Positions 760 through 34,978 of a DNA stretch of 64,000 nucleotides are shown here, piece by piece (position 1 is the stretch's first letter; each line of letters starts with the position of its first letter). This DNA comes from Candidatus Adlerbacteria bacterium (lineage in GTDB: Bacteria > Patescibacteriota > Minisyncoccia > Phycocordibacterales > SBAW01): the NCBI GenBank assembly GCA_963749085.1, contig CAVVLG010000002.1, positions 229,033 through 293,032 of the forward strand, given 5' to 3'. A model generated the notes under the pieces. That model was not told where the DNA came from. It saw nothing but the letters and a program-made list of their open reading frames with translations, and made no database searches. Both the position numbers and the translations under genes were made by a program.

Positions 760-2130
760 CTACTGCAGTGTACTACGTGACGCGATGGCCTGCATCAGCG
801 CTTGATACGCGGGCTTCTGCGAGCCGTCGTAGCGCAGAATGCCGAAGAAGTTTTCGTTGGTGCTCATACTCGTACCCAAATCTTGATAGCTGTAAATAAA
901 AATCGGGCCCGCCCAGGCATACCCGCCCGCCAGAGTGATCGCGGCGGCTATCATTTGAGCTTGCAGAGCCTCGGTGACATGGTCGGGACTCCCCATAAAG
1001 AACGTGTCGCTCGTGCTACTCTCGAGCGCTCCGGGACCCCCGGTGGGCGCCCCGTACTCGGTCATCCATATCTGTTTGTTGCCGTCGCCGTTCGCGATCA
1101 TAACGCTACGCAAACTGGGGTTCGTTTGAGCCATCTGCTGCCATGCGTTCCACTGTGCCGGATAGCCGGGCATCGCGGGATACGAGTACGGATGAAAACC
1201 GACTGCATCGAAGTTGCCCCCTGCCCCATCGGCATAGAGCGCCCCAAGAAAATCAATGGGCGCAATATTGCGACCGTCAGTGGCTTCCGGAGCAAGTCCG
1301 CCGGTGATAACTATCGCGGAAGGATCAGCATTTTTTATCGCCGGATAGGCAGCCTTAAGTAGTTGGGTGTACGCTTGCGCATTTGCCGCCGGCTCCCAAA
1401 AACCAGCATTATTGGGTTCGTTCCATATCTCCCACGTATGGAGACCTTGTGGGGCGAAGTGGTCAACCACTGCCGTTGCAAACTGTGCAAATTGCGAGTC
1501 TTCAGCCGGAGGGCATCTCATTGAAGTGCACCCGCTGATCGCGGCCCACATCGGGGCATACCCCAGAAGACCAAGGATTTGTATGTGCCGCGCATTCGCT
1601 GCCGCAACTATCCGATCATAATTGCCCCAATAATAATGGGCGCTATTGCGTGGTTGTATCGTGCTCCAGTCAAAATCTATTCGTATCCCACCAACCCCGA
1701 GCGAGGCAATGGTATCTAACTCCGCAGTAAGCTCTGCGTTATCAAGCCCAAGAAGCGTACTGCCGAGAGCAAATCCGTAGTCGTCACTCACCGTACTCTC
1801 CGTGCTCGTAGGAGCCAGTACTTGGGAGGGCGCTGCGGCTGGGATCTGCGCAAGTGCAGCCGGAGGCACTACGGCTGGGGTCTGTGCAGGTGAGGGCGCT
1901 GGGGCCGAGATCTGCTGCGGCGCAGCGGGGGGCGCTGCCGGGATCTGCTGCACAGCAGAGGATATAACCGCAGGAGGCGTGTAGGTTTCGGCTGGCTGCA
2001 TGGCATCGGGGGGGTTGGCGTGGGCTGCGGCGACTGCCAGTCCTATAACCAGTAATGCTATGAACACAAAGCCGAGCGTAAGTCTATAGCGCTCCTTGTT
2101 CCCACGCCGTGAAGCACTTTGCATGAACAT
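760..2130 (-). CDS. membrane-anchored glycoside hydrolase, GH5 (cellulase-like) family
   Basis: N-terminal TM anchor (LTLGFVFIALLVIGLAVAAA), then a Pro/Ala-rich linker (PAAPPAAPQQISAPAPSPAQTPAVVPPAA), then a catalytic domain with the GH5 acid/base signature WEIWNEPN and the segment DFDWSTIQP. Start taken at MFMQSASRR (2130) rather than the longest ORF. Confidence 0.7.
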   Translation of the reverse strand: MFMQSASRRGNKERYRLTLGFVFIALLVIGLAVAAAHANPPDAMQPAETYTPPAVISSAVQQIPAAPPAAPQQISAPAPSPAQTPAVVPPAALAQIPAAAPSQVLAPTSTESTVSDDYGFALGSTLLGLDNAELTAELDTIASLGVGGIRIDFDWSTIQPRNSAHYYWGNYDRIVAAANARHIQILGLLGYAPMWAAISGCTSMRCPPAEDSQFAQFATAVVDHFAPQGLHTWEIWNEPNNAGFWEPAANAQAYTQLLKAAYPAIKNADPSAIVITGGLAPEATDGRNIAPIDFLGALYADGAGGNFDAVGFHPYSYPAMPGYPAQWNAWQQMAQTNPSLRSVMIANGDGNKQIWMTEYGAPTGGPGALESSTSDTFFMGSPDHVTEALQAQMIAAAITLAGGYAWAGPIFIYSYQDLGTSMSTNENFFGILRYDGSQKPAYQALMQAIASRSTLQ

Positions 2131-2184
2131 GTGAATGCCAGTATAGTTCCACCGTCTAGAATTTGGAAGGGACGGCCTACCATA

Positions 2185-4338
2185 ATGCTTACGCGCGTCA
2201 TACAACATCTGCACCGGGACACCCTTTTGCGCAATTCGATCTATTTGATGCTTGCCACAGCGACCATGGCCGGTTTTGGCTTCTTTTTTTGGCTCATCAA
2301 TGCGCGACTTTTTTCGATCGAAAATGTCGGTTTAGCCACGACGCTCATTTCGGTCATGACGTTAATAGCCACGCTGAGTCTCATCGGATTTAATGCTGCG
2401 TTCGTTCGTTTTCTGCCGAAATCCTCCACCAAGAACGAGCACATGAACACGGGCCTCCTGATGGTAAGCATTGCATCAATCGTATTGGCAGTAGTGTTTA
2501 TTGCCTTCGTCAGGTTTATCTCGCCGCAACTGAGCGTTGTAGAGGAGAATCCGTGGTATGCGCTTATCTTCGTCGTTGCCTGCGTCATGACCGCACTGAA
2601 TATTCTGACTGACTCTATTTTCTTGGCGAACAAGCAGGCGAAGTTCACCCTTATCATCGACGCCCTGTTCAGCCTCTTTAAGATGCTCGCCCCGTTCGCG
2701 TTCATTGGCTTCGGGGCTATAGGTATTTTTACCGCGGCGGCGCTGGCGCAAACACTCGGTACCATCCTCAGCATCGCGGCGATGATCAAGTGGTTTCAGT
2801 ACCGGCCGAAGTTTGTCATCACGCCGGGTGTACTGCAGGGCATCTGGCGCTATTGCGCCGCCAATTACCTCGCCGGGGTGTTTAATCTCTTGCCGGTCAC
2901 GCTGCTCCCGATCATTATCATCAACCATCTGGGGGCCGCATCGGCCGCCTATTATTACATTGCCATGATGATAGCCACCCTGCTCTATGAGATACCGTAC
3001 GCAACCACCAAGTCCCTCTTTGCCGAGGGTTCCCACAACGAGGCATCGCTTAGTGCGAATGCCAAAAAATCGATTCAGATGATCGCACTGCTCTTAATAC
3101 CCGCCACACTGATTCTCTTTGTAGGCAGCGGGGAGCTCTTGCGTATCTTCGGGAGCGCCTACGAGGGCGGCGGTAGCACCTTTTTGCGTCTGCTGGTGGT
3201 GGCGGGCGTCGCCGTGAGCGCCTACTCGCTTACTAACGCTCTCTTCCAGGTCAAAAAGGATTCCCGAGCCATCATTATCGTCAATGTCTGCTACGCCCTT
3301 TCCATCCTCGCCCTCAGCTATCTCCTGCTGCCCTGGGGGTTAACCGGCATCGGCATTGCCTGGATAAGCGGGAATCTTTTCGCCGCCCTCGTCGGCTATG
3401 CACTTGATCGTTGGCAACCGTATGTGGTGGAAGCCGTCGATGCCACAACCCACAATAGGCTCGCTATGCTGCGCTTTAAGCTTCGCTATATGCTGGCGTT
3501 GGTGAGAAACGGCTTCAAACGCAACACCATCCTGTTCTATCCAGATAGCCCCCAGGTGTGGCATATCCTCTATCGGATGTGCCACTCTCTCGGATACCGG
3601 ATATCCAACGATCCGGAGTCCCCCTTTGACCTCGCGATAGCCTTCTGCGACACGACCACAAGGAAAAATGATGCGACGCTACAGCATCTGTCCTTGAAGC
3701 ATACGGTCGTAAACCTTCGCTGCGCTGATATCAGCAAGGAGCATGTTGAAGAAGTATTTACCGAAGTCTTTGGGTATGGGATGTCCATTGACCCACGCAC
3801 GTACCCCGGTCCCTATGTCAAAAAGTCAAATCTCAATAGCACGCATGACGGCACCATTCTACAGGGTCGCTCAGAGCCCAAGGAGGGGTATATCTACCAA
3901 AAGCTCGTCAACAACAGCGCGGGTGACGGCACGTTTAAAGACATCAGGGTCCACATATTTAAGGATCAGATACCGTTTGTGCTTTATCGGTATAAAAGCG
4001 CCACTGACCGCTTTGACGACAATCTTAGAGCCGAATGGGTCGACACCGACAAAGCGCTCAGCCAGGAGGAGCAAAGACAGATCATCCGTTTTTGCCACAC
4101 GTTCGGGCTTGACTACGGCGAGCTCGACGTCCTGCGCGATGCGGATGACGGCAAACTCTATATTGTCGATGCCAACAATACCCCGACCGGCCCGCGCCCG
4201 GGAGTACAGGTAAGCAAAGCGTTCTACCGAGTTTTTTTACACACTCTCTCTCAAACCTTTGCCTCTGAATTCATGGAAGAAAAGCGCCTAGTTATTCAGC
4301 GCAGCGTGGCACACGGCGCTGATACGTCCGGCAACTGA
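2185..4338 (+). CDS. fusion protein: Wzx-like polysaccharide flippase (MOP superfamily, about 12 TMS) with a C-terminal ATP-grasp ligase domain
   Basis: N-terminal about 420 aa are polytopic and typical of O-antigen/polysaccharide flippases. C-terminal about 280 aa carry an ATP-grasp signature (IRVHIFKDQIPFVLYRYKS ... GLDYGELDVLRDADDGKLYIVDANNTPTGP). Start at MLTRVIQHL (2185), divergent from the GH5 gene. Confidence 0.6.
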   Translation: MLTRVIQHLHRDTLLRNSIYLMLATATMAGFGFFFWLINARLFSIENVGLATTLISVMTLIATLSLIGFNAAFVRFLPKSSTKNEHMNTGLLMVSIASIVLAVVFIAFVRFISPQLSVVEENPWYALIFVVACVMTALNILTDSIFLANKQAKFTLIIDALFSLFKMLAPFAFIGFGAIGIFTAAALAQTLGTILSIAAMIKWFQYRPKFVITPGVLQGIWRYCAANYLAGVFNLLPVTLLPIIIINHLGAASAAYYYIAMMIATLLYEIPYATTKSLFAEGSHNEASLSANAKKSIQMIALLLIPATLILFVGSGELLRIFGSAYEGGGSTFLRLLVVAGVAVSAYSLTNALFQVKKDSRAIIIVNVCYALSILALSYLLLPWGLTGIGIAWISGNLFAALVGYALDRWQPYVVEAVDATTHNRLAMLRFKLRYMLALVRNGFKRNTILFYPDSPQVWHILYRMCHSLGYRISNDPESPFDLAIAFCDTTTRKNDATLQHLSLKHTVVNLRCADISKEHVEEVFTEVFGYGMSIDPRTYPGPYVKKSNLNSTHDGTILQGRSEPKEGYIYQKLVNNSAGDGTFKDIRVHIFKDQIPFVLYRYKSATDRFDDNLRAEWVDTDKALSQEEQRQIIRFCHTFGLDYGELDVLRDADDGKLYIVDANNTPTGPRPGVQVSKAFYRVFLHTLSQTFASEFMEEKRLVIQRSVAHGADTSGN

Positions 4339-5448
4339 CTCCCAGGTGTGTCCTTTCTTGATAAAGGCGCGACCCCGCTCCCCCAACGCATGGCGTTCTT
4401 CTTCGTTATCAATGAGCGCGACGAGTACACGTGCAAGCGCTCGTGGCGACTCCGGCTTAACATACGCAACCGCAGCGCCAAACTCCTCGCGTATGCCGCC
4501 TATGTCAGAGACGACGACCGGCTTAGCGCAGGCAAGGTACTCGTACACTTTAAACGGGGACGTGGCATACGCTCGAACTCTCGTCGGGTAACAGAGACAT
4601 ATATCGACAGCTTGTATATACCGCGGAATGAGGGCGTGCGGAACGGCCGGGCGTAGCTCGATTGATGCGTGTAACTGATTCTGTCTCACAAAGGAGGATA
4701 TGTAGTCATACTCTTTCCCACTACCGACGATAAGAAATTTGCTTTGGGGGCGCTCCCGCAGCACCAACTGTGCCGCCTTTAGGATATACCGCAACCCCTG
4801 CCAGGGATAAAAGCTCCCGATATAGGCTATATACACTCCGGAGCCAAGGCCAACAACGTGGCGGGCACTGGCAGACGTGCCAGGCTGAAAAATAGCTGTA
4901 TCGACGCCATTGTGCACGATGGTTATCGTGGCGGGATCTATCGCGTAGTGCTTAAGTGCGTACGCTTTAATCCCGGGTGCAACCACAATAATTTGTGCCG
5001 CAGATCTGAGGATGAGCGACTCTATCATCTTGAGCACTCCCAGAGTAAGCAGCGCACGACCAATAATGGAGTGAAAGTTTTGCTCCGCTTCGTCCAGCAG
5101 TTTACCATTCATCTCAAGGACGAGAGGAATGCGTGAGAACCTGCTAATGAGGACGGGCACAAACAGCAGGTGGTTGTTTCGCACGTAGATAATGTCCGGT
5201 CTATGGTGGAAGATATCGCGCCGTAGGATAAAAAAGACTCGTACTTGGAACCATACCGAAATCAAAAAACGCGGTGTCGTAATGGACTTCAATCGGTAGC
5301 CGTGAGGCGAGGAGAAGGTGTCCGTCTTCGGCGCATAGAGGGTTACCGCATGCCCAAGAGAAGCCAGCTGTTTGCAAATCTCATCTATATGAATCGTCTC
5401 TACCGAGCTATCATCGAGTATTTCGTTGGTGATGTAATAAATAGTCAT
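4288..5448 (-). CDS. glycosyltransferase family 4 (GT-B fold)
   Basis: C-terminal GT4 motif SPFKVYEYLACAKPVVVSDIGGIREEF (E-x7-E). 386 aa. Its 3' end overlaps the flippase gene 3' end convergently by 51 bp. Confidence 0.75.
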   Translation of the reverse strand: MTIYYITNEILDDSSVETIHIDEICKQLASLGHAVTLYAPKTDTFSSPHGYRLKSITTPRFLISVWFQVRVFFILRRDIFHHRPDIIYVRNNHLLFVPVLISRFSRIPLVLEMNGKLLDEAEQNFHSIIGRALLTLGVLKMIESLILRSAAQIIVVAPGIKAYALKHYAIDPATITIVHNGVDTAIFQPGTSASARHVVGLGSGVYIAYIGSFYPWQGLRYILKAAQLVLRERPQSKFLIVGSGKEYDYISSFVRQNQLHASIELRPAVPHALIPRYIQAVDICLCYPTRVRAYATSPFKVYEYLACAKPVVVSDIGGIREEFGAAVAYVKPESPRALARVLVALIDNEEERHALGERGRAFIKKGHTWESVAGRISAVCHAALNN

Positions 5449-5454
5449 AGCTTC

Positions 5455-7818
5455 TTATCGGTACACGAGCGCACTTCCGTTGTCGTAAATCCGATTTTTA
5501 TTGTCATCAAGAAAGGCCAGCGGGTAGGTATACGAGATATTGTCTCCCTCATAAAAGAGGGACACCGCGTGATTTCGAACGTCAGAAAAACCCAAATAGA
5601 CATACGAGTCTAGTTGGACCACCCCGGGGTAGATATCGTTACTAAGGTTTGCGTCTGCAAAGGTGGAGAGATTCCGGGTCGAATAATAGTCACCCTGGAT
5701 CAGTATCTTGGAAGTGGAGAGCGTGTCTTTTTGTATCTCAGCCGCAAGCCAATCACTACTCGCCACATCAGTGGCATGGATGTAATAGAGCTGATAATAA
5801 TCGCCGGAATTATTGAGATGCAATTGGGCCCCGTATCCTCCCAGCAGTTGGGTAAAGACCCCGGTCGATGAGAGCAGGAACAGTACGGCAAGGATACCCG
5901 CCAATGTTATTCTCGTATCATTTGAAAGACCCACGAATACATACAGACTTCCGACGACGATAAAGATACTCAGAAACATGAGCGATTGCTGAAACGCCCG
6001 GAGCAATCCGTACTCGGTCGAGAGCACCGGCAAGACAAGTTGGGCAAACACAAATACGATGCTGCCGATTGATAAGATAACGTAGTCACTCGCAAGGGGT
6101 TTCCGAAGAAATCGACTGCTCAGGAGGAGTGCGGCAAAGCCAATGATGACCAGCAGTTGCAGTAACCTGGCTGATCCTTGCCGAACCGCAGTATTGAATG
6201 CCACTACATTGATACCCACCTGCTCCATACCGCGGCCAAGCGCGGTTAAGGGCATCACCGGATCGGCTATGACTTCAATGGGATAGTGCTCGTAGGTTGA
6301 TGCGGGATAATAGACCCCGGTAGGAGCGATCGCACGAAACGGTGCAATCACTAATTGGAGATACTGCGCAAAGAGCTGATCGGCATTTGAGGTATGCAAG
6401 GACAGCAAACTGTAACTGGTATCGCTTGATTGGGTGTCTTGTTTGACATTGCTTTTCATGACCGCAATCGTCTCATCAAACACTCGATACAAACTACCGG
6501 ATGCCGTATTGGTCAACGTACTGCTCCATACAAACGTGGCGAGGAGGAGGAGGGCGACCATCCACAGCACGATGCGCTTCTCATCCCTATAGAGTGAGGG
6601 CCGCAGCGCTGCCATCCCTGAGGAGGAAAAAAACTGTAATCGTGAACTGTATTTTTTTGAGAACCAGTGCACGAGAGGCTCGGTCAGTACTAACAGTATA
6701 AGGAGTCCCAGTACGATGTAGGTCGTACTGTAATGAGACAAAATCATACCTAACCCGAGACCGACAAACAGCAGCTGCCTCAACCGAAGCGGAATATCCG
6801 TTTCAAAAATGACATAGATCATAAGGATTAAAAAGAGAAAGGCGATCTCTTGCCTATTAATGAACGGCATATCGCCAAAAAAAGTTGGGAATCCGATGAA
6901 ATAGAGCACAGAAATAAACGCAAGGGTACTGGAGACGTATCGCCTCACCGTCAAATACAGCATACCCGGCAGGGTTGAAAACAGTAACTGGAAGAGCACT
7001 TTAAACACATAGGGATCAAACAAACTGAGCACATTACTAAAGATAGTGGGCAAAATGGTGATACTCAGGCATGCGTTATAGGCATTGCGATAATTGGCGA
7101 TAGACCAGATACCACTCGATGTGGTCAGTTGAAAGACGCTGTATTCTTGCTGAATATCATGACCGGTCGCATACCAGCCACGAAGCGAGGTCATGAGGAG
7201 GAGTGCCAATGACACAAAGAAAAGCGCTATAGGAATGACATTGGGACCGAGTCTCTCGCCCTGCCACACAAGCCACAGGCAATACACTCCTATGCCCATA
7301 AGCATAATGAGTGTCAGAACCCCGCTTGCTCCGTTGTTAAGCCGAATGGCACCGAAGATTGCCATGAGGACAAACGCGATGGGTGCCAAGGCAGTCAGGG
7401 CATCGCGGACACTCCCAAACACCCCGTAGCTCCTAAGCGAGATATGTACCTCTTCCTTAAACTCCCAGATAAACGCTATAAGGGCATTCACCAAAAAAGC
7501 AAACTCCACCAGAAGAGTGGGTCGATCAAGCGGTCGCACTATTCCCAATTGGGGGAGGAGCGTATTGCCTGCTAAGGCTACCAGCATGAGCTCAAGCACA
7601 CTGAAACCTATGGTCAAACCGACGTAGGCCCACAAAGGCAGTCCATTGAGCTCCAAGAGAATGATCGTTAATATTCCGGGGAGACCTATAAGAGTGATAA
7701 ACCCGACAATGTTTAGGACTTGAAATCCGTTGTATTGCGAGGCACTAAGGAATAAAAAAACACCTTCCCACAGCAAGGTATAGATGAGCAGTCTGTTTCG
7801 ATTGAGAGAGAGTCTCAT
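5455..7818 (-). CDS. large polytopic membrane protein (787 aa); possibly a GT-C-type glycosyltransferase or polymerase
   Basis: About 15 predicted TM helices over the N-terminal about 560 aa, then a soluble Tyr/Asn-rich C-terminal domain. Embedded in the glycosyltransferase operon with an ATGA overlap to the upstream GT4. No catalytic motif could be verified. Confidence 0.45.
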   Translation of the reverse strand: MRLSLNRNRLLIYTLLWEGVFLFLSASQYNGFQVLNIVGFITLIGLPGILTIILLELNGLPLWAYVGLTIGFSVLELMLVALAGNTLLPQLGIVRPLDRPTLLVEFAFLVNALIAFIWEFKEEVHISLRSYGVFGSVRDALTALAPIAFVLMAIFGAIRLNNGASGVLTLIMLMGIGVYCLWLVWQGERLGPNVIPIALFFVSLALLLMTSLRGWYATGHDIQQEYSVFQLTTSSGIWSIANYRNAYNACLSITILPTIFSNVLSLFDPYVFKVLFQLLFSTLPGMLYLTVRRYVSSTLAFISVLYFIGFPTFFGDMPFINRQEIAFLFLILMIYVIFETDIPLRLRQLLFVGLGLGMILSHYSTTYIVLGLLILLVLTEPLVHWFSKKYSSRLQFFSSSGMAALRPSLYRDEKRIVLWMVALLLLATFVWSSTLTNTASGSLYRVFDETIAVMKSNVKQDTQSSDTSYSLLSLHTSNADQLFAQYLQLVIAPFRAIAPTGVYYPASTYEHYPIEVIADPVMPLTALGRGMEQVGINVVAFNTAVRQGSARLLQLLVIIGFAALLLSSRFLRKPLASDYVILSIGSIVFVFAQLVLPVLSTEYGLLRAFQQSLMFLSIFIVVGSLYVFVGLSNDTRITLAGILAVLFLLSSTGVFTQLLGGYGAQLHLNNSGDYYQLYYIHATDVASSDWLAAEIQKDTLSTSKILIQGDYYSTRNLSTFADANLSNDIYPGVVQLDSYVYLGFSDVRNHAVSLFYEGDNISYTYPLAFLDDNKNRIYDNGSALVYR

Positions 7819-8930
7819 ACCACCTCCCTATAGACGTCTTCGAGTCTATCTATGACCGTGGGCCAGGAGTACTGCCGAGCTTTGTCCACACTTTTTTTAG
7901 AGAGTTCCTGTGCGAGGGAGTTACTTCGTGCCACTGCTTCTATGGCAGAGGCCAGATTGACCGGGGACGGGTCGGCCACGATACCGACCTCCTCGATAAG
8001 CTCGCGGATACCCGCTACGTTGGAGCCAATGACGGGCAACCCGGCCGCCATGGCCTCAAGCAGCACGAGCGGCATACCCTCAATGTCAGAGGGCAAGACA
8101 AACATATCGGCGCTGCGATAGTACTCGAGCAATGCGTCTCCATACTTTTTTCCCACGAACACAATATTTTTCAATCCCAGCTCTTTCGTGAGGCGCTGAA
8201 GCGCAGCGGCCTCTTCCCCATCGCCGACCAATGCAACCTCAACCGGCACGTTAAGCAGCGCCACGGCCTTGATAAGCCTATCGACACGCTTTTGTACGGA
8301 AAAACGACCAACGTATAAAATGCGCGACGGACTATTGAATGCGATTTTGGGCTCACGGGTAAAAAACTGGCTCCTGACCCCATTGGGAATAATGGCGATG
8401 TTGGACGTCGGTACGCGGTATTTTTTTTCAACGAGGAGTGACTGCTCGTCGGAGAATACAATCACTCGTGAGGCACCTCTGAGCAGTGGCCCCCAGAGGA
8501 TCTTTTTATACACCAGGAACAAAGGGCCAAAAAAACCGGAGGGTCCGACGTCAAGATGGAAGTGAACGATATAGGGAATGCTCCGAAGCCGTGACGTCAG
8601 CAGTACCATCTCTGGGTAGTACGCCTGGGAGAGATGCAGGTGCATGAGCGAGCGTGTAGGGAGTGTGAGTAAATGCCACGGCAGGGTCGGGGTCAGCGGG
8701 GTATGCGCAAATTCAACACTGCCCAGTGTTTTTACGGTAAGATGCTCTTGATGACTGCGGTCGCTGCCGACGCCACCTGACGTCAACACCAAGACCGGGT
8801 GACCACGTTTGGCAAGGTAGTGTGAAGTGGTGTGTACCACTTCTTCGAGCCCCCCCATATGAGGCGGGTAATAGGCGCTGACCTGGACGATGAGCGGTTC
8901 ATTGCTCATAGGCGCTGTCACGGAGCACAT
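7815..8930 (-). CDS. glycosyltransferase family 4
   Basis: GT4 motif EGMPLVLLEAMAAGLPVIGSNVAGIRELIE. Its stop forms an ATGA overlap with the downstream membrane-protein gene. The true start may be at MSNEPLIV (8909). Confidence 0.8.
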   Translation of the reverse strand: MCSVTAPMSNEPLIVQVSAYYPPHMGGLEEVVHTTSHYLAKRGHPVLVLTSGGVGSDRSHQEHLTVKTLGSVEFAHTPLTPTLPWHLLTLPTRSLMHLHLSQAYYPEMVLLTSRLRSIPYIVHFHLDVGPSGFFGPLFLVYKKILWGPLLRGASRVIVFSDEQSLLVEKKYRVPTSNIAIIPNGVRSQFFTREPKIAFNSPSRILYVGRFSVQKRVDRLIKAVALLNVPVEVALVGDGEEAAALQRLTKELGLKNIVFVGKKYGDALLEYYRSADMFVLPSDIEGMPLVLLEAMAAGLPVIGSNVAGIRELIEEVGIVADPSPVNLASAIEAVARSNSLAQELSKKSVDKARQYSWPTVIDRLEDVYREVV

Positions 8931-10755
8931 GCATAAAAATCTCGTGGTGTTTCGCCGCTAACGTATGCCAGTTGTACTTAGCTTTGACTTCTTGTAGTCC
9001 GGCCTCAACCAATTTCTCAACGAGGGGCGGATCGCTCAACAAGCGGGTGATTGCCGACGCAAGCGCCGGAGCATCGTTTGATGGTACCAAGAGACCGGTT
9101 TTCTCATGCTCAATGACCCACGGGATGCCTCCGGATATCGAACCGATGACCGGTTTGCCCGACGCCATCGCCTCAATAAGCACCATCCCAAAACTTTCTG
9201 CAGGTGAGAGCGACGGCAACACGAACATCGTGCACTGCTGATATACGGTCGTGAGTTCTGGTGCAGTCACTCTGCCTTTAAAAATCACTTTATCCTGCAA
9301 CCCACGTGCTGCGACAGACGCTTCGTAGGCAGGTCGCATATTGCCGTCACCCCCTATCACGAGCCGGAGATTGGGAAACCGCTCGTGCACCCTATGGAAT
9401 GCCTCTATCAATACGGGCAATCCTTTGTGTTGTTCAGCGCGCGTCAATCCGGCTATAAAGAGAATCGTTTGATGCGGAAGGTCCCAGTAGCCCGGCATAA
9501 AAAGATCAGTATCAACCCCCGGCGTAATGGTGGTACTCTTGTGGACATAGGAGCGTAAAAAACCGAGCCGTACGAAATCAGACGGGCACACGATCGCGGC
9601 GGCCCGTCTCAACTGCCAGTGCATGGGGCCATGTTCATAGAGCCAGATCACTAGGTTGGACAGGACCCCGTGCATCTTTTGCATACTGCCCGTGTGATAG
9701 GTAAGCACCAGGGGGCGCCTCCCCTTGACCACAGCGATGACGTCGCTCATGAACGGCACGGGCGTGTGAGCATTAATAACAGAGATGCGCTCGTTGCGTA
9801 TAATGCGCCGCAGCAACCACGGCCACAAAAAATTGACGGGGGTGTTGGATAGCTTAAACCAATAGGGCACGCGATATACTTTGAGCCCCTTATACTCCTC
9901 CTCCCGCACGCGAAAACCGCGACCACCCGAGGTGGCAATGCACAGCTCCCAGCCGAACTCCTGTTGCAGTCGTGTGGCGATGTTGTAGGCGTACATTTGG
10001 GTCCCGCCGTGATAGGGAGGAAAGTATGGAATGGCAATAAGCAACTTTTGCGCGTGCGGGGCGAGCTCGCCATTATGTACATAGGTAACCTGCGTTCTCC
10101 CTGCAATATACTGCAATACGCGTTCAAGTTTTTCCCAATCATGGTGTACATCGATCTCCCAGGAATGACCCCACAAGTGAAAGATTCCGCCACGCTCAAG
10201 CACCCGGTCAAACATCGCTATGGCGAGATTGTCCCACTGAAAATAGGCAATGGTCTTGGCCGGGTTAAAGTGCGCAAAACGGGCTATCTTCCACAGATCG
10301 GAGAAATGGTTGTACGTATGAATGCTCGTTTGTGCCTCAAGAGAGCGATCCGCCGAAAAGGAATGCCTGTGCACCGTGCGCGCATAGGTGAAGCCGGCCT
10401 CGCGGACCATAGCGACGTGCTTTTGGGTATAGTCCCCGTGGGGATAGCAAAAGGATTTCAGTTGCCTGCGAGTAAGGTTCTCGAGGTATGCCTTTGAGCG
10501 CGTGATCTCCCTGCGTGCCTCGATGTCTGAGAGTTCGGGCAGCGGGTGATGGATCATCGTGTGTGCGCCTATCTCAAACGTCTCGCTTATGTGTTGAATT
10601 TGTGCGGGATCAAGAAGATCGCGTGGAGAAAATTCTACATTATCCGGAGCGATATAAAACGTTCCCTTGATGCCGTATTTCGTAAGTAATGCGGCCACGC
10701 GCAGGTCGAGCACGTGGCCATCATCCCAGCTTGTGGTCACAATCACTTTTTTCAT
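8899..10755 (-). CDS. fusion protein: polysaccharide deacetylase (CE4/NodB-like) N-terminal domain with a GT4 glycosyltransferase C-terminal domain
   Basis: N-terminus VIVTTSWDDGHVLDLRVAALLTKYGIKGTFYI (NodB homology motif 1, DD-H). C-terminus ESFGMVLIEAMASGKPVIGSISGGIPWVIEHEKTGLLV (GT4 E-x7-E). 618 aa. Confidence 0.7.
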   Translation of the reverse strand: MKKVIVTTSWDDGHVLDLRVAALLTKYGIKGTFYIAPDNVEFSPRDLLDPAQIQHISETFEIGAHTMIHHPLPELSDIEARREITRSKAYLENLTRRQLKSFCYPHGDYTQKHVAMVREAGFTYARTVHRHSFSADRSLEAQTSIHTYNHFSDLWKIARFAHFNPAKTIAYFQWDNLAIAMFDRVLERGGIFHLWGHSWEIDVHHDWEKLERVLQYIAGRTQVTYVHNGELAPHAQKLLIAIPYFPPYHGGTQMYAYNIATRLQQEFGWELCIATSGGRGFRVREEEYKGLKVYRVPYWFKLSNTPVNFLWPWLLRRIIRNERISVINAHTPVPFMSDVIAVVKGRRPLVLTYHTGSMQKMHGVLSNLVIWLYEHGPMHWQLRRAAAIVCPSDFVRLGFLRSYVHKSTTITPGVDTDLFMPGYWDLPHQTILFIAGLTRAEQHKGLPVLIEAFHRVHERFPNLRLVIGGDGNMRPAYEASVAARGLQDKVIFKGRVTAPELTTVYQQCTMFVLPSLSPAESFGMVLIEAMASGKPVIGSISGGIPWVIEHEKTGLLVPSNDAPALASAITRLLSDPPLVEKLVEAGLQEVKAKYNWHTLAAKHHEIFMHVLRDSAYEQ

Positions 10756-12620
10756 GTCAGTAAGGCGTCATAGATGGCGAGCAACTTCGGAAGAATCTCA
10801 GGCCATCCAAAATAGGATCGCGCGTAGTGCGTGGAATACGAGCTCATCTTCTCTAAGTGGACATCGTCGTTAACGATCGTCGTGATGGCCCGTCGTACGC
10901 TTGATTCGGAGGGCTGATCGAGAAAATAGATGAGCTTCTCATCCAAGTGATAGCGCCGGTAGCCTGCATCATAGGTCGTGATAATGGGGAGTCCGGTTGC
11001 CATCGCTTCCTGTACGGACAGCGGAAACCCCTCCCCTTCGGAGGGCAGCACAAAAATATCTGCCGCCTGATAAATCTCGGCGACCACGGATTGCGGAAAC
11101 GGCCCAAGAAAAACGACGTTTTCACTACTTTGCCGTGGAGTTTCGTTTCCGACCAGTACAATCTGGTAATATTCGCTCTGCGCGGCGAGCAGTTTATCAA
11201 CTCCCTTTTTGGGCACAAATCGTCCCACAAAGAGAATGATCTTTTTGTGCGGGCTCAAATGATATTTCCTTCTCAGCGCTTGTTTGTGCTCTAGAGTGAC
11301 CGGATGAAACAAGGAGAGGTCTACGCCGTTTGAGAGCGCCTGCAGTTTACTGCGATGTATACCCCCGTTGAGTAAAAACAGCTCCACCCGGTCGTTGAGG
11401 GTGATAATGCGTGCGCTTAAACGGAAAATGATGGCGCCGGTCGTGGCATAGACGAGGCGCTGCATGGTCTTCACCAAGAGATTGGGATGCATGATCATTT
11501 CGACGTGCTGGGTTAAGACGATGGGTTTTTCACATACCCGTGCGCACAGTGCGGCAAGAAACGAGCTCATATAGAAGGCGTCGTGAATGTGTACAATATC
11601 GGCAGTCCTCGTCTGCCTGAAGAGTACGAGGAGAAACTGCGGCGAAAAGATCGGGAATGGTACGCCCCAGCGTTCAAAAATATTCCACGCGCCTACGCGT
11701 ATAATCGTCAAATTCTTTTGAAGACAATCCGGCCCCTCAGCGGCGATGCCGCTCGTCACGACGGTCACGCGGTGTCCGGCGGCGGAGAGCAACTCCGCCT
11801 GACTCTTGACGACAATTTCGAGCCCACCGACATGCGGCGGATAATAGCTCGAGACAATGAGAATGTTTTTAGTGCAGGAAGGAAGTCTGGGGGCTTCGGC
11901 ACGCTCTGGCCGCCAGAAGGTATTGCGCATGAGCATGAGCAGGATGCGGCTCCCGTCCTTCAGCGGATGCAAGTTCGATACGCTGCCGACCCGAGGATGA
12001 TAGCTGATGGGCACGCAATAAATCTCCTGCCCCAAACGCGCCATTTTGGTTATCATCTCCATCTCGATGGCAAAGCCGTCTGAGCGCAAGTGCGGGCGCA
12101 ACTCAGTCAGAGCTTCCCTTCTCCACGCGAAGTAGCCCGTGAGCACGTCGGTGACGTTCACACGATACAGCGAGCGCACCAGGTGTGAGAAAATCCAATT
12201 GCCTGCGCGGTTACACAACGTCATCGAGCCGTCATGAATGCGGCCGCCCAGCCGCGAGCCGAGCGCCACATCGCAAAAGCCCGAGTCCAGGAGCTCCAGC
12301 AAGCGCAAAATCTCCTCCGGCCGGTAGGTGTTGTCGCCGTCGAGCATCACGACGTAGTCGGTATCCTCCGTCACTGCCGCAAATCCGCGGCGCATCGCGT
12401 TGCCTTTGCCGCGGCGAGGTTCATCAATGACCCTCACCCCGTGTTGGCGTGCGATTCTCGCCGAGTCATCGGTTGAATTATTGTTGATGACGATGATGGT
12501 GAGGTCGTAGCCGTAGGTGCGCAACTTCTCTGTCGGGAAACTCCTGAGCACGGCCTCAAGGCTCTCCGCTTCGTTGAAGCAGGGGATAAGCGCGGTGACT
12601 TTTTTATTCGTGCGTTTCAT
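10752..12620 (-). CDS. fusion protein: GT2 (Dpm1/GtrB-like) N-terminal domain with a GT4 C-terminal domain
   Basis: N-terminus ALIPCFNEAESLEAV ... IIVINNNSTDDSARIA ... VMLDGDNTY (GT-A fold, DxD). C-terminus EGFPLSVQEAMATGLPIITT (GT4). Start at MKRTNKK (12620), which overlaps the upstream stop as ATGA. The stop overlaps the next start as ATGA. Confidence 0.7.
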   Translation of the reverse strand: MKRTNKKVTALIPCFNEAESLEAVLRSFPTEKLRTYGYDLTIIVINNNSTDDSARIARQHGVRVIDEPRRGKGNAMRRGFAAVTEDTDYVVMLDGDNTYRPEEILRLLELLDSGFCDVALGSRLGGRIHDGSMTLCNRAGNWIFSHLVRSLYRVNVTDVLTGYFAWRREALTELRPHLRSDGFAIEMEMITKMARLGQEIYCVPISYHPRVGSVSNLHPLKDGSRILLMLMRNTFWRPERAEAPRLPSCTKNILIVSSYYPPHVGGLEIVVKSQAELLSAAGHRVTVVTSGIAAEGPDCLQKNLTIIRVGAWNIFERWGVPFPIFSPQFLLVLFRQTRTADIVHIHDAFYMSSFLAALCARVCEKPIVLTQHVEMIMHPNLLVKTMQRLVYATTGAIIFRLSARIITLNDRVELFLLNGGIHRSKLQALSNGVDLSLFHPVTLEHKQALRRKYHLSPHKKIILFVGRFVPKKGVDKLLAAQSEYYQIVLVGNETPRQSSENVVFLGPFPQSVVAEIYQAADIFVLPSEGEGFPLSVQEAMATGLPIITTYDAGYRRYHLDEKLIYFLDQPSESSVRRAITTIVNDDVHLEKMSSYSTHYARSYFGWPEILPKLLAIYDALLT

Positions 12621-13075
12621 GGTTGTGTCGTCGTCGGCACATAAAAGTCGATGTGTTGCTGAAGCGTCGGCAAAAGAACGATAAACTCGCCTGGCTCCCA
12701 CGCGTAGCTCAGCACCGCTGCTTCACTGATGGTGCTCGAGGCATTGTCTGCAAGCGTGATGACTCCCTCATCGATGGTCGTGGTGCCAAGCGATCTCATG
12801 ACATAGACCAGGTAGGGGTAGGTCGTGGTCGTACCCTCAACGTTGTGGATGGTGAAGGAGAATGAAATAGTTGTGCCGTTGGTGACTTGCGAAGGATCTT
12901 GTGGATAGGTGTCGAAATATAACTCGGTGAAGGGCTCAGGCTCGGGAATAAGTTTAAGCGCATTGAGTTCGTTGTAGAGGGGCACGCGCGCAAGATACAG
13001 CAGCACGCACAATGCTATGCCACCGCCCAAAAGAAGAAGGATCGTCTTTGTCTTTTGCGTTGGGGAATCTGACAT
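12617..13075 (-). CDS. membrane-anchored hypothetical protein; first gene of the glycan operon
   Basis: Single N-terminal TM (ILLLLGGGIALCVLLYLA), then a Thr-rich extracytoplasmic region. Translationally coupled (ATGA) to the GT2::GT4 gene. Confidence 0.4.
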   Translation of the reverse strand: MSDSPTQKTKTILLLLGGGIALCVLLYLARVPLYNELNALKLIPEPEPFTELYFDTYPQDPSQVTNGTTISFSFTIHNVEGTTTTYPYLVYVMRSLGTTTIDEGVITLADNASSTISEAAVLSYAWEPGEFIVLLPTLQQHIDFYVPTTTQP

Positions 13076-16060: not shown

Positions 16061-16999
16061 TCACCCGGCGATGAGCACGTCGCTGTCGCAGCGCTCTCCC
16101 GGAGCAAGGAGCGGGAGGCCGGCAATGTTCTTGTAGTACGGGCTCAGATCCGACCGCATGAGGGAGTGGAACGCCGGCCAGTTCGTATTGACGAAGTACG
16201 TCTCTTGCAGGTCGCTGAAGTGAAAGTCCGTGCGCATGATGCGCGCGACATCCTCCTCACATTCCGCGTCGAAACGCACCCGGAGTGGCTTGCCTTCAGT
16301 TGCATTGCGGAGCTCCTCCGGCGAGGACGCAAGGGCCGCGCCAAAGCCCTCGAGCTTCCCCTCCTTACGCTGGAGCCCAAACTCAATGGTGTTGAGATAG
16401 AGGCGCGAGAGCGCTTTGAAGGCCGGGGTGCCGCTCACCTTGATGCTTTGCCTCCCGAACGCCTCCATCAGCGAAGCGAGATCGGGGTCGGTCAGCATCC
16501 AGAGATGCCCGCAATAGTCGTGAAAAAGGTCCGGTGCTTTCGCCCTGTCAATCTCATCGCGACCCCGTATCTTCGCTATCGCCGGGAATCTCCGTTTCGC
16601 AAAATTCAAGAAGTCTTTTTCATTCTCTGCGTACGCTATGGTAGGGTCCAGGCTCCATCGAGTCGCCCAGTAGAGTCGGGCATTGAGCTTAGGGAGGGGA
16701 GGAATACCGCCCTCAAGCATCCCAAGCCAGATGACATTTTCTTCGAAGGTTCGACAAAATCTGCCCTTCTGGGTTTGTAGTACCCTTTTGATCAAGGTAT
16801 TCCACACCCAGTGATCCTCCTTAGTGTACGCTTCGTCAGGCCCTGTTACGTGGGCCTCTGGCCGGCGTACGGTGTCAAGCATGATAGCAACTCCTTCTGC
16901 CATGTACCGGATTGAACAATCCTGCGACACCATAGTTGATATGAGTGGGTTGTCAATTGAGTGGCGATTCACTCGGGGTGTAGCACACGGCGAAGGCAT
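16061..16999 (-). CDS. phhA: pterin-dependent aromatic amino-acid hydroxylase-like protein (phenylalanine-4-hydroxylase family)
   Basis: PDLFHDYCGHLWMLTDPDLASLMEAFG aligns to the PAH motif PDxxHELxGHVPLLxDPxFAxFxQxxG (the two iron His are 5 apart). TIEFGLQRKEGKLEGFGAALASSPEEL aligns to TVEFGLC..G..KAYGAGLLSSxGEL (iron Glu). ETYFV aligns to the C-terminal YFV. The exact start is uncertain. Confidence 0.55.
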   Translation of the reverse strand: MPSPCATPRVNRHSIDNPLISTMVSQDCSIRYMAEGVAIMLDTVRRPEAHVTGPDEAYTKEDHWVWNTLIKRVLQTQKGRFCRTFEENVIWLGMLEGGIPPLPKLNARLYWATRWSLDPTIAYAENEKDFLNFAKRRFPAIAKIRGRDEIDRAKAPDLFHDYCGHLWMLTDPDLASLMEAFGRQSIKVSGTPAFKALSRLYLNTIEFGLQRKEGKLEGFGAALASSPEELRNATEGKPLRVRFDAECEEDVARIMRTDFHFSDLQETYFVNTNWPAFHSLMRSDLSPYYKNIAGLPLLAPGERCDSDVLIAG

Positions 17000-21206: not shown

Positions 21207-21273
21207 GGGCAGGCAAATTACGGGTAACGCCCTGTGCCTTTAGTCTACAACGGTATTTTTGAGATTGGTTCTA

Positions 21274-22314
21274 GTGAATGGGAAGTCCTGTATCAACGCC
21301 GATAATAATCCTGTCGCCTTGTTCATTGACTTCAGGCACGACGTTCTTTAACACAACAGTGCTGGGTATTTTGTTTTCCGAGGCGATGTAGGGAAGCCCA
21401 AGGACATAGTTGTAAAAGTATTGCTCACTTTTATGTGGGTCGTTCTTGGCTTCGATAATCTTCTCTGCGCTTATCCACGGACACATCAACTGAGAAATAT
21501 GATAGCCTCGAAATGTACCGAGAGCGGTGGCGAGCCATTGGCCTTTTTTTCTCACATCATTTGATAGAGGCGCGAAACAATACTTGCATTGATAGTGTTT
21601 CGTCTCAAGATTGATTGACTTGGGCCACGCAAGTATCTGCTTCACTGTACAATGGGGGCAGGTAATAACCCATTCTTTCTTGTCGCTCTGCTGCCAATAA
21701 ATGTCCACCCCAAATCCAGCCACGGAAGGGTGAGACCAATACCATCTGCTTGCTTCGGGTTTAGCTTGTTGTCGCGTCTCCATGAGCTTGACGTTCTCCC
21801 AGTTAGAGAAATCTAACTCGTCGTGTGCGTTTATATCTGAGGGATACATCATCGCTTGCGTGGGAATCTGCGTTCCACGGAAGCGTATCATCGAATCCCC
21901 CACCGCCTTATGTGACATGGTGTCTGAATTCTGCACCCATTTCTGTAGAGGAGGATTTTGGGCTATGAGCCGGTTAAATGTTCCGGACACCATCTCGTAC
22001 GTCGAATCCTCAGTAGGAAGGGTATACACTATCTGTTTCTTTTGATGGTAGGCGATGTAGAGGCACTTCAATATCTGCGCCGTCGTCATGCCGACCTGAG
22101 GTGGTTTGAGCACCACCATTAACGGGGAGAAGTCGTTGTAGATATCCTTTAGGAACTTGTGGTCGTCAAATTCAATAGGTTCTCCCACCTCATTCACGAG
22201 CGTAGATGCCCATAAGGACGGGTAACGACTGTATGCTTGCTCTATCTCCTCATCACTGAAGCTTGAGAAGTCTATCGGCGAGCTCTCTGATTTTTGGGGT
22301 ATACGTAATCTCAT
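21274..22314 (-). pseudogene. phage terminase large subunit, N-terminal (ATPase) fragment, ending at the IS insertion
   Basis: 347 aa with a Walker-A-like VLKPPQVGMTTAQIL, ending IIGVDTGLPIH. The stop codon (cta at 21271-21273) lies inside the IS right-end region. Confidence 0.6.
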
Positions 22315-22660
22315 GTTTTATAGTGAGCGCATGTTCTTTCACTTTCGCACCGTATTTCGCAGAGTTATGCTCGAGCCAATACTTAATCGCTGGCCAATGC
22401 TTGTCTTTGCTCAGTAGGATGAGTTGGGATTCGTTCATATCATTGATGAATTCGATCCCTTGCTTTATCGCCTCGACGGCCTGCCGCCTGAATACCTCAT
22501 CCTCCTGTAGCCAGCGGTAGTAGGTGGGACGCGATACCCCGGCTTTCTGGCAGGCGACCTGAATGATGGGCCACTCTTTGAGCGCATCGAGCATTTTTTG
22601 CTTATTCTCGATCATGCGCTCCTCAACGGAGGGGACTTCTTTTATTTCTTCTTCACTCAT
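22253..22660 (-). CDS. phage terminase small subunit-like HTH protein
   Basis: 135 aa with an HTH (ACQKAGVSRPTYYRWLQEDEVF). Immediately upstream of, and overlapping, the large terminase gene. Its start overlaps the stop of the ParB::MTase gene (ATGA). Confidence 0.5.
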   Translation of the reverse strand: MSEEEIKEVPSVEERMIENKQKMLDALKEWPIIQVACQKAGVSRPTYYRWLQEDEVFRRQAVEAIKQGIEFINDMNESQLILLSKDKHWPAIKYWLEHNSAKYGAKVKEHALTIKHEITYTPKIRELADRLLKLQ

Positions 22661-23934
22661 ACCTTCTTTGGAATGAGGCCAGTAAGCTGCGACCAGCGGT
22701 TGAGTATGACCGAGGCGTACAGGGGGGATTCCTCCATGACGTAGCAGCGCCGCTGCATCTTTATCGATGCTATGAGCGTGGAGCCGCTACCGCCGAATGG
22801 GTCGAGCACGAGATCCCCGCGCTTCGTGAGTACCTTGATATAGGGTATGAGGATATCAACTGGCTTTGACCTAATGCCCTGGTGGGATGCATGCCGGTCA
22901 TATGTCCCATGTTCGATAAAGTCGGTGGGCTGATTGTGCATGTCTTTTTCGTAGCCTCCCCAGTACGGCTTCCCCTGCATAGCGTGGAGCGCGCTCTCAT
23001 ACACATTCTGTAGAAGCTCATCTTCCCGAGCAGTGTTGAGGGACATCTTCACGTTGGAGGAGCCGACCATGGCGATAGCACGCGGAGCAGAGAATTTGTA
23101 ATTGGCGGAGTAGCTCGGCCCGCGATTTCCCACATGCCACACCAGCATATTTTTGACTTGCCAGTACTTCTCCATCTCATCCGAAATGTGGCGAATGTGT
23201 TGCCAGTCCTCAAAGACGATGATATGAAAGTCGTCCTTGGCGGCTGCCTGCACATGTGCCATCCATCGCGGCGTGCTCGAGACGACATTGCTTTTCTTTC
23301 TCCTGCCGTGGAGCAGATAGGGCGGAGACGTGAGACACAGATCCACTTTATTTTTGCCTATGAGTGTGCGCATATGGGCCCCGATGGTGGGGTCTCCGCA
23401 TACGAGACGGCTGCCGCTCAAGTCATACATGTCGCCTTTTTCGACGTTGAGGCGTTTGTGATCAAGATTCGCTACTTCTTCCTCCAGATCAAACGGCTTG
23501 GGTGTTATGTCGATAGTGAAGATATCGTCAAGCTCTTCACTAGTGAACCCGGCGGCGGAGAGGAATGTCTCGTCGAATTTTTCGAGCAGCGTTTCGTCCC
23601 ATGCGCCCCTATTTTTGTTGAGGCGAAGATTTAATTGTTTCTCCCGCTCTAAGTCGGGGATGTTGATATATAGCACCGGCACGATTTCAATACCGAGTTG
23701 CTTGATAATGGAGAGGCGAAAGTGGCCGCCGATGACGACGCCCTTTCGCTCCGGCGCACTATTCACGATCAACGGTTCGACGATGCCGAAGCTCGTGATG
23801 CTTTCTTTTAATTGGTTCTCCGCTTTCTTGTCCCACGTTCTTGGGTTATATTCTGCGGGTTTGAGGGTAGCGATTGAGACATGCTCAATGCGCAGGCCCC
23901 CAGGAACCTTTGTATTTGTCATGGTACTGAACAA
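22657..23934 (-). CDS. fusion protein: ParB-like nuclease N-terminal domain with DNA N6-adenine/N4-cytosine methyltransferase
   Basis: N-terminus IEHVSIATLKPAEYNPRTWDKKAENQLKESITSFGIVEPLIVN (ParB/Srx fold). MTase motif IV CLTSPPYLL and motif I VLDPFGGSGSTLIA (beta-class order: IV before I). This architecture is common in phage packaging modules. Confidence 0.75.
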   Translation of the reverse strand: MFSTMTNTKVPGGLRIEHVSIATLKPAEYNPRTWDKKAENQLKESITSFGIVEPLIVNSAPERKGVVIGGHFRLSIIKQLGIEIVPVLYINIPDLEREKQLNLRLNKNRGAWDETLLEKFDETFLSAAGFTSEELDDIFTIDITPKPFDLEEEVANLDHKRLNVEKGDMYDLSGSRLVCGDPTIGAHMRTLIGKNKVDLCLTSPPYLLHGRRKKSNVVSSTPRWMAHVQAAAKDDFHIIVFEDWQHIRHISDEMEKYWQVKNMLVWHVGNRGPSYSANYKFSAPRAIAMVGSSNVKMSLNTAREDELLQNVYESALHAMQGKPYWGGYEKDMHNQPTDFIEHGTYDRHASHQGIRSKPVDILIPYIKVLTKRGDLVLDPFGGSGSTLIASIKMQRRCYVMEESPLYASVILNRWSQLTGLIPKKV

Positions 23935-34718: not shown

Positions 34719-34978
34719 AGACACCAGTATGCAAGGTTCTGAGGAAAAACAAAAGACCGTGCCGCTATGTAAAAGCTTTTTTGTCAACTCGACCAAAAAG
34801 GCTCCCGCAGAAGGCTTTTTTGGGGTGGAAATAAAACCCCATGTTAAGCCAAAAATCAAGTTCTCCGAGCCTTATTCCTAGTCCTTTTTGAGCGATGCCG
34901 TTGCCATTTTCAAAAAAAGTTTTCGTACCACTTATGCACAGTCAAGAAAAGTACCGCACCGTGGCGCCGGGGAGTATA

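Follow-up and report, generated by a model that had tools for sequence, protein, structure and literature searches.

Why would a bacterium make the protein that flips its surface-glycan units across the membrane as one chain with a cytoplasmic, ligase-like enzyme? The question is raised by a gene at 2185..4338 on the forward strand of a 64-kb window (the whole stretch of DNA analysed here, from contig CAVVLG010000002.1 of a Candidatus Adlerbacteria bacterium), in which a Wzx-type flippase runs on into an ATP-grasp domain. Our answer, to which we give as much credence as doubt, is that the gene encodes a fused flippase and amide ligase that would decorate a glycan unit before flipping it; the sequence shows an unbroken gene, the two folds, conserved motifs, recurring fused and split states, and a syntenic cluster, and the ligase chemistry, its substrate, and the coupling of modification to export are what we infer. 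The domain architecture appears to be new, as does the widespread and unannotated ATP-grasp family that it brings to light, a family tied to surface glycans. Fusions of enzymes to glycan machinery and glycan amidation by ATP-grasp enzymes were already known in principle. In the literature searched, we found no description of the flippase fusion or of the family (the Lipocone paper touches the terms in unrelated contexts), in line with the original prediction, whose author knew of no described Wzx::ATP-grasp fusion.

The gene is indeed the single open reading frame (ORF) of 717 residues that had been predicted. It runs from an ATG at 2185, from which we number the protein, to a stop codon at 4336-4338, with no stops and no frame changes between the flippase and ATP-grasp halves. 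A mechanically called ORF is longer, starting from a TTG at 2119 (2119-4338, forward strand), and the N-termini of homologues align with the ATG at 2185. One protein, P0001, is identical to the window protein, and the search for orthologous fusions that the original prediction called for returned at least 26 other full-length proteins with the fused architecture (42-58% identity, 91-100% query coverage). These come from different assemblies held by NCBI, JGI, ENA, and Logan, and they can be aligned through the junction without a gap at the domain boundary. Because 26 independent homologues share the fused state, a read-level frameshift in the source assembly cannot explain it.

To place the gene among its relatives, we called ORFs in 80 loci from GTDB representative genomes, 78 of them with a called ATP-grasp gene, and compared these with the window proteins. 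The fused gene is present in seven of the genomes (L010, L012, L014, L016, L017, L018, and L030), and a split, adjacent pair is present in two (L011 and L015). In a syntenic Saccharibacteria contig that covers the same locus as L011 (L001), a flippase gene of 409 codons ends in a stop and is followed after a 15-nucleotide gap by an ATP-grasp gene encoding 308 residues. The Patescibacteria fusion is not unique to the window gene; it recurs and alternates with the split state. Fused and standalone forms also interleave in a rough neighbor-joining tree of the ATP-grasp domains, where the fused P0019 is sister to the split P0138, in a tree that carries no support values and in which some "standalone" entries lie on contigs shorter than 2 kb and are possibly truncated fused genes. 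Judged from these sequences, the window gene is a genuine fusion of two neighboring surface-glycan-cluster genes, and a recurrent architecture that has probably been selected.

The junction is variable in other ways as well. The ATP-grasp gene or domain is often doubled, either in tandem or as paralogs within a locus (L012, L015, L021, L035, and L061); L035 and L061 are two of three Verrucomicrobiae loci, and each of the two holds a second paralog. Two tandem ATP-grasp domains follow the flippase in P0002 and P0242, and P0241 has a double ATP-grasp domain without a flippase; doubled copies would be compatible with two ligation reactions, either successive or alternative. Close homologues of the flippase carry other C-terminal partners. 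Six of them (P0077, P0092, P0093, P0100, P0101, and P0108), named by their sources as Nanoarchaeota or Pacearchaeota, are fused to an exosortase/archaeosortase domain (PF09721), and P0049 (814 residues) is a fusion to a family 4 glycosyltransferase (GT4). Fusions seem to arise repeatedly at the C-terminus of MOP flippases.

The N-terminal half (residues 1-410, 2185..3414; all features of the gene lie on the forward strand) is predicted to be a member of the PST/Wzx family of MOP flippases with 12 transmembrane segments, and at the level of prediction the flippase body described earlier is borne out. Pfam Polysacc_synt (PF01943) matches residues 14-267 at 46.4 bits against a cut-off of 28.2, and Polysacc_synt_3 (PF13440) scores 42.1 bits against 23. 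By hydropathy, scanned over 19 residues, the stretch from residue 18 to 407 contains 12 hydrophobic segments, and lysine and arginine are enriched in alternate loops in a pattern that places both termini of the flippase domain in the cytoplasm. The full-length AlphaFold2 (AF2) model, built from a 27-sequence alignment, likewise has 12 transmembrane helices (pLDDT 85.9, pTM 0.62). In a Foldseek search of the PDB, this half retrieves MATE transporters, WzxE, and MurJ (E values 2e-9 to 1e-5), and its best target-normalized TM-score, 0.76-0.78, is to WzxE, the Lipid III flippase. The last transmembrane helix does not end at the membrane in the model. It continues without a break (AF2 helix 382-441) into a basic amphipathic linker helix at residues 411-441 (3415..3507), and an equivalent basic amphipathic helix is retained at the N-terminus of standalone ATP-grasp homologues.

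Beyond the linker, residues 442-700 (3508..4284) are predicted by fold and motifs to be a cytoplasmic ATP-grasp domain with the three-subdomain fold of that superfamily, the second part of the original prediction that has stood up. The AF2 model of this domain, from a 62-sequence alignment (A2), is confident (pLDDT 94.8, pTM 0.89), and the best 50 listed Foldseek matches in the PDB are all ATP-grasp proteins, from 222 matches at E <= 1e-3. These 50 matches have E values of 3e-9 to 2e-7, TM-scores of about 0.5, and identities of 12-18%, and they span ligases and kinases: Asp1/PPIP5K2/Vip1 and ITPK1 kinases, D-Ala-D-Ala ligases (Ddl), LysX/ArgX, the graspetide ligase PsnB, and RimK. When the A2 profile was compared with the PDB, RimK (5zct/4iwx) was found at E 0.006, with the family motif G-E-L-D-x-L-R lying over G-V-D-I-L-R of RimK and D648 over RimK D248, presumably a Mg ligand.

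Ten residues are invariant or nearly so in fused and standalone members (K518, K547, Q572, R588, E646, D648, R651, D662, N664, and T666), and K547, Q572, R588, D648, R651, and D662 count as invariant (alignments A1 and A2). Most of the ten lie in four motifs. The first, YVKKSN (3814..3831), holds the invariant K547, presumably the lysine that binds ATP phosphates. YIYQKL (3889..3906) contains Q572, a putative adenine-binding hinge residue that is invariant in A1 and, with Y571, nearly so in A2; this region adjoins the 'LVQEYI' hinge of RimK in the profile alignment. GELDVLRD (4117..4140) brings the D648 that aligns with RimK together with the invariant E646 and R651, and YIVDANNTP (4159..4185) carries the invariant D662 and T666 and an N664 that is at least 90% conserved. 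D662-x-N664 would be the second Mg site, written as D-x-N rather than E-x-N. An N-terminal, substrate-type subdomain is conserved too, with the motifs YPxxP and FxDxT. Since all ten of the conserved residues are present in the window protein, its ATP-grasp domain looks catalytically competent.

Membership in a named ATP-grasp family is not borne out. Of the profiles proposed there, Polysacc_synt was found above its cut-off, and RimK and ATP-grasp_3-type models fell below theirs. Pfam RimK (PF08443) reaches 15-16.8 bits against 21, rimK_fam (TIGR00768) reaches 21.4 bits against 143.4 (E 1.4e-4), and MptN (NF040720) reaches 27.5 bits against 350 (E 1.5e-6). The latter two, both alpha-L-glutamate ligase models, are the best curated-family matches, all of them sub-threshold, and we reject membership in RimK on these scores. 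In a Pfam scan of 62 family members, the sub-threshold matches were to Ins134_P3_kin (11/62), RimK (9/62), and YheC/D (6/62). The TupA-like and sugar-transfer-associated (ATPgrasp_ST) models, PF14305 and PF14397, matched none of the 62 at E <= 1, and both were set aside. Membership in the ITPK1/PPIP5K family (PF05770) does not hold over the domain either: its matches are sub-threshold except in P0243, where the score of 23.6 bits (cut-off 23) stems from a 34-residue stretch covering only profile positions 152-186. By these comparisons the C-terminal domain belongs to no curated ATP-grasp family and represents a large unnamed one.

That family is widespread. When residues 428-717 were used as a query, 410 relatives came up, most of 280-310 residues; among the 120 of these that were listed, none had a precomputed Pfam domain, and those with names were almost all called "hypothetical protein". 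An exhaustive hidden Markov model search of 1.84 billion representatives gave 1,555 clusters at 50% identity (E <= 1e-3), 1,034 of them at E <= 1e-30. The usual form is a standalone protein of about 300 residues. GTDB genomes contain 295 stretches that code for a relative, distributed over more than 10 phyla that take in Patescibacteria, Actinomycetes, Mycobacterium/Mycolicibacterium, Cyanobacteria (Calothrix, Oscillatoria), Bacteroidales, Cytophagales, Nitrospira, Verrucomicrobia, Omnitrophota, Gemmatimonadota, Planctomycetales, and one archaeon.

Many of these relatives sit among glycan genes. A glycosyltransferase, flippase, or DUF2206 relative is adjacent or fused to the ATP-grasp gene in 24/78 loci, within two genes in 34/78, and within 10-kb flanks in 48/78, counts that are lower bounds in that only relatives of window families were scored, and that stand without a genome-wide background. 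By family, the 80 loci hold relatives of GT4 (47), GT2 (19), the flippase (16), DUF2206 (16), the deacetylase (16), and the GH5 glycoside hydrolase (11). Bacteroidales members neighbor Stealth sugar-phosphate transferases, Wzy_C, GT2, and GT92; GT9 genes are found beside the family in other loci. Around the Nitrospira genes are a DUF4910/M28-like protein, a GDSL hydrolase, an NDP-sugar epimerase/dehydratase-family enzyme (Pfam GDP_Man_Dehyd/Epimerase), and a methyltransferase.

Other neighbors bear more directly on chemistry. An Asp/Glu racemase gene lies directly upstream of the ATP-grasp gene in two Omnitrophota loci, and an Orn/DAP/Arg decarboxylase gene holds the same position in most of the four mycobacterial loci, which also encode GT4, a deacetylase, a UDP-sugar dehydrogenase, GH113, and an AMP-binding enzyme, with a carrier protein downstream. 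The order in Verrucomicrobia is flippase, Wzy_C, GT4, and ATP-grasp, and then a phosphoenolpyruvate (PEP) mutase/nucleotidyltransferase fusion and a thiamine pyrophosphate (TPP) decarboxylase, an aminophosphonate route; the mutase and decarboxylase pair is downstream in three loci, adjacent in L035 and L038 and separated by two small ORFs in L061. This suggests a phosphonate-decorated glycan pathway that involves the family. Finally, the cluster representative P0261 (583 residues) is a fusion in which an ornithine cyclodeaminase/mu-crystallin (OCD) domain precedes the ATP-grasp domain; read as a Rosetta stone, it hints that the substrate derives from an amino acid.

From these pieces we propose the following for the window protein. 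The 12-helix Wzx-type flippase would translocate a polyprenyl-phosphate-linked oligosaccharide, as its context of GT2, GT4, and GT-C-like neighbors implies, and its last transmembrane helix would run on as the basic helix into the cytoplasmic ATP-grasp enzyme. That enzyme would activate a carboxylate as an acyl-phosphate and form an amide bond, attaching an amino acid or small amine to the glycan unit as a decoration. The reaction would take place at the inner face of the membrane immediately before flipping, and the fusion would thereby put the last cytoplasmic decoration beside the export step. The acceptor could be a free amine made by the co-conserved polysaccharide deacetylase; the conserved deacetylase would yield such an amine on a hexosamine, a natural acceptor. 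We favor amide ligation because the neighbors repeatedly make amino acids or amines (the racemase, the pyridoxal-phosphate-dependent decarboxylase, the aminophosphonate genes, and the OCD fusion), because the best curated sequence matches are glutamate ligases, and because there are precedents among glycan and peptidoglycan enzymes, to which we return below.

Acylation of a de-N-acetylated hexosamine is as plausible as addition of an amino acid to a uronic acid, which the original prediction had offered. The uronic-acid version finds no support at this locus: the 64-kb window holds no homologue of a UDP-sugar dehydrogenase or other uronic-acid gene, and we reject a uronic-acid acceptor here. 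That version fits the mycobacterial loci. As to the broader claim of an amide- or peptide-bond-forming enzyme, the assignment to the ATP-grasp enzymes stands on fold and motifs, and the bond chemistry had been put too strongly.

Several observations weigh against amide decoration of a glycan. In the Foldseek ranking for the ATP-grasp domain, a kinase (Asp1/PPIP5K) comes first, and PPIP5K2, Vip1, and a high-ranking ITPK1 are all among the top 20. The D-x-N Mg motif is that of the inositol-phosphate kinases ITPK1 and PPIP5K. No curated ATP-grasp ligase model in Pfam or among the curated profiles reached its cut-off, and among the sub-threshold matches Ins134_P3_kin is more frequent than RimK (best E 0.019). 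Within its 64 kb, the window lacks an obvious gene to supply a carboxylate or amine, and it lacks a UDP-sugar dehydrogenase as well. The neighbor counts lack a background, as noted, and about 30 of the 78 loci have no recognized glycan gene within 10 kb, examples being Methylotetracoccus (L006/L023) and Dehalococcoidia (L007); the role of the family may therefore extend beyond glycans. Lastly, the geometry between the domains is uncertain in the AF2 model (pTM 0.62), which makes physical coupling to the flippase cavity, and any true channelling, hypothetical.

The kinase matches make it natural to ask whether the domain instead acts as ITPK1 and PPIP5K do on inositol phosphates and adds a phosphate to the lipid-linked glycan or a precursor, at a hydroxyl or an existing phosphate, with the flippase exporting the product. 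To the structural ranking this reading can add the Ins134_P3_kin matches (weak ones in 11 members, with P0243 just over the threshold), the resemblance of the D-x-N motif and of 'D-x-L-R' to PPIP5K, and the phosphorus chemistry encoded in some loci, Stealth in Bacteroidales and phosphonate genes in Verrucomicrobia. Yet the ligases Ddl, LysX/ArgX, PsnB, and RimK match the fold equally well, and the best curated sequence matches are to glutamate ligases. A polyanionic substrate would also find few conserved basic residues here, the family having only four that are invariant (K518, K547, R588, and R651), and the repeated adjacency to a racemase or decarboxylase, like the OCD fusion, fits a ligase better. 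We consider a kinase unlikely, though a serious contender. An amide ligase whose substrate is soluble (a nucleotide sugar or some other small precursor metabolite) and not the lipid-linked unit is closer to our proposal and differs in that the fusion would merely co-localize or co-express two steps with no mechanistic coupling to flipping. Most family members are standalone soluble proteins; many of their loci lack a MOP flippase, such as cyanobacterial ones with apparent ABC-transporter and Wzz-type chain-length regulator genes (judged by eye); and free alternation between fusion and fission implies that a covalent link is not required. Set against this, the recurrent fusion is specific to the flippase and not to the roughly six neighboring glycosyltransferase domains, and the basic amphipathic N-terminal helix of the standalone proteins suggests proximity to the membrane or flippase. 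We find the soluble-precursor version plausible but unlikely.

Two further readings dispense with the enzyme or with the fusion. The attachment of the domain at the cytoplasmic end of the last transmembrane helix would suit a non-catalytic ATP-binding module that regulates or energizes the flippase, but all of the catalytic-type residues are invariant, those of both Mg sites included, and the substrate-type subdomain with YPxxP and FxDxT is conserved. The family mostly occurs without any flippase, and tandem duplications such as those of P0002 and P0241 fit enzymes better than a regulator, which leaves a non-catalytic role very improbable. As for an assembly or sequencing artefact, in which a lost stop or a frameshift joined two genes, the 15-nucleotide gap of split versions means that a single error could in principle have done so; the gap-free alignment of 26 independent fused homologues from four sources through the junction, and the fused genes in seven GTDB representative genomes, reduce this to a nearly negligible prospect.

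The amide-ligase proposal can be carried further, to a new family of membrane-proximal glycan amidoligases that act on polyprenyl-linked oligosaccharides and hand the finished unit to Wzx; in the fused form, decoration and export would make up a single 'modify-then-flip' checkpoint machine. We put this forward tentatively, as an extension that we hold to be rather unlikely. If it were true, a hexosamine de-N-acetylated by the cluster deacetylase would be, for example, a target for aminoacylation, and the family would account for amide-linked, non-carbohydrate decorations on surface glycans across more than 10 phyla.

The genes around the window fusion are consistent with a glycan cluster and, apart from the fusion, all lie on the reverse strand. 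The divergent neighbor is a GH5-family glycoside hydrolase (760..2214; Pfam Cellulase, 32 bits), syntenic in 11 loci, and the convergent neighbor is a Pfam-assigned GT4 glycosyltransferase (4288..5448) found in the same position in L010-L018 and L030. Next comes a large DUF2206/PMT_2-like membrane protein (5455..7818; PF09971 and PF13231), likely a GT-C-type transferase or polymerase, whose relatives in 16/80 loci always stand alongside the module described below. Three further genes identified with Pfam follow: a GT4 (7815..8930), a polysaccharide deacetylase (residues 5-124) fused to a GT4 (8899..10755; PF01522 and GT4 models), a fusion also seen in L011, L012, L016-L018, and L030, and a GT2 fused to a GT4 (10752..12701). 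The cluster ends with a small protein of 152 residues (12617..13075), recognized by its homologues as neighbor family 'c6', which has no Pfam match in the window; its relatives mark the cluster edge in L009-L011, L052, and L054, and a family representative approaches DUF1616 below the cut-off (29.6 against 31.6 bits). Across its 64 kb, the window has no homologue of UDP-glucose dehydrogenase, UXS, decarboxylase, AMP-binding enzyme, PEP mutase, Ppd, or Stealth.

As a module, GH5, flippase (with or without ATP-grasp), GT4, DUF2206, GT4, deacetylase-GT4, and GT2 recur in Patescibacteria (L008-L018, L030, and L033) and again in metagenome-assembled genomes of Actinomycetes/Thermoleophilia (L037, L052, and L054). 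The whole module, c6 and the ATP-grasp gene included, is shared with the latter, and their ATP-grasp domains are about 40-43% identical to those of Patescibacteria. Actinobacteria are known hosts of Saccharibacteria, and it is possible that the shared module reflects ancient gene transfer between host and epibiont.

The rest of the window offers a few observations of its own. A Biopterin_H gene, resembling biopterin-dependent aromatic amino-acid hydroxylases and unusual for Patescibacteria, lies at 16061-16999 (reverse strand), 3.4 kb from the cluster. Genes of the same family lie directly upstream of and divergent from a standalone ATP-grasp gene in Paceibacterota (L008, 9145-9876, reverse strand) and Saccharibacteria (L009, 1375-2100, reverse strand), and could be related to the amino-acid substrate of the enzyme. 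Farther along are adjacent genes for a phage terminase large-subunit gpA-like ATPase and a ParB-N/DNA methylase fusion (21271-22314 and 22657-23934, both on the reverse strand), a pair likely left behind in this small genome by a prophage or mobile element. Other genes of the window code for a TIG/RTX-repeat protein (26221-28029), a class I-type ribonucleotide reductase with ATP-cones (34895-37966), and a pyruvate phosphate dikinase (46859-49570); ARAGORN found no tRNA genes in the 64 kb.

Few of the enzymes that decorate bacterial surface glycans with amino acids or amines are known, and the selection of completed units by Wzx flippases is likewise poorly understood. The family described here offers a tractable handle on both, being widespread, without a Pfam or NCBIfam model, located in glycan loci, and repeatedly fused to flippases in Patescibacteria. 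The fusion predicts a physical interaction between enzyme and flippase, and standalone homologues in culturable strains of Mycolicibacterium vaccae, Calothrix, Pontibacter, and Adhaeribacter would make direct assays possible. In Patescibacteria, whose surfaces mediate attachment to hosts, the fusion marks a conserved envelope-glycan pathway.

How, then, does the window protein compare with systems already known? Its flippase half resembles WzxE and the Wzx O-unit flippases (PDB 9g9n, 9g9p) in its 12 transmembrane segments, its Polysacc_synt match above the cut-off, the TM-score given above, and its setting among glycosyltransferases and a polymerase-like membrane protein. It is unlike them in sequence, at only about 16% identity, and in the soluble C-terminal enzyme of about 300 residues, which is absent from the matched MOP structures. 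The ATP-grasp half shares its fold with RimK, MptN, and LysX, its best curated sequence relatives, and its 'D-x-R', 'G-x-D-x-L-R', and acidic-x-N motifs align with theirs; unlike them, it scores far below their cut-offs, is 12-16% identical, has D-x-N in place of E-x-N, and carries YPxxP and FxDxT in an N-terminal subdomain whose motifs differ. The likeness to ITPK1/PPIP5K (Asp1, Vip1) lies in the top structural matches, the weak Ins134_P3_kin matches, and the shared D-x-N and a 'D-L-L-R'-like motif. The new family differs from these kinases in apparently lacking a conserved cluster of basic substrate-binding residues and in its place in bacterial glycan loci.

For chemistry, there are two precedents. 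ATP-grasp D-Asp/D-Glu ligases convert the carboxyl group of an amino acid to an acyl-phosphate and ligate it to a free amine on a peptidoglycan precursor (PMC2655667). The pairing of D-aspartate ligase with aspartate racemase resembles the pairing of racemase and ATP-grasp genes in Omnitrophota; the D-aspartate ligase belongs to another family, has a peptidoglycan stem peptide as its acceptor, and is not fused to a flippase. In Campylobacter jejuni, Cj1438 is a GT2 fused to a C-terminal TupA-like ATP-grasp amidoligase that amidates the glucuronic acid (GlcA) of the capsule (PMC11800379). There, as in the window, an ATP-grasp enzyme is fused to a glycan-assembly protein in a surface-polysaccharide locus, and the characterized domain joins the GlcA C6-carboxylate of the growing glycan to an amine as an amide. 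The partner of Cj1438 is a glycosyltransferase rather than a flippase, its domain is of the TupA-like type that none of the 62 members of the new family match, and it acts on GlcA, for which the window has no uronic-acid gene. By analogy, the window fusion would work most like the glycan amidoligases of the Cj1438 type, without being a member of that family.

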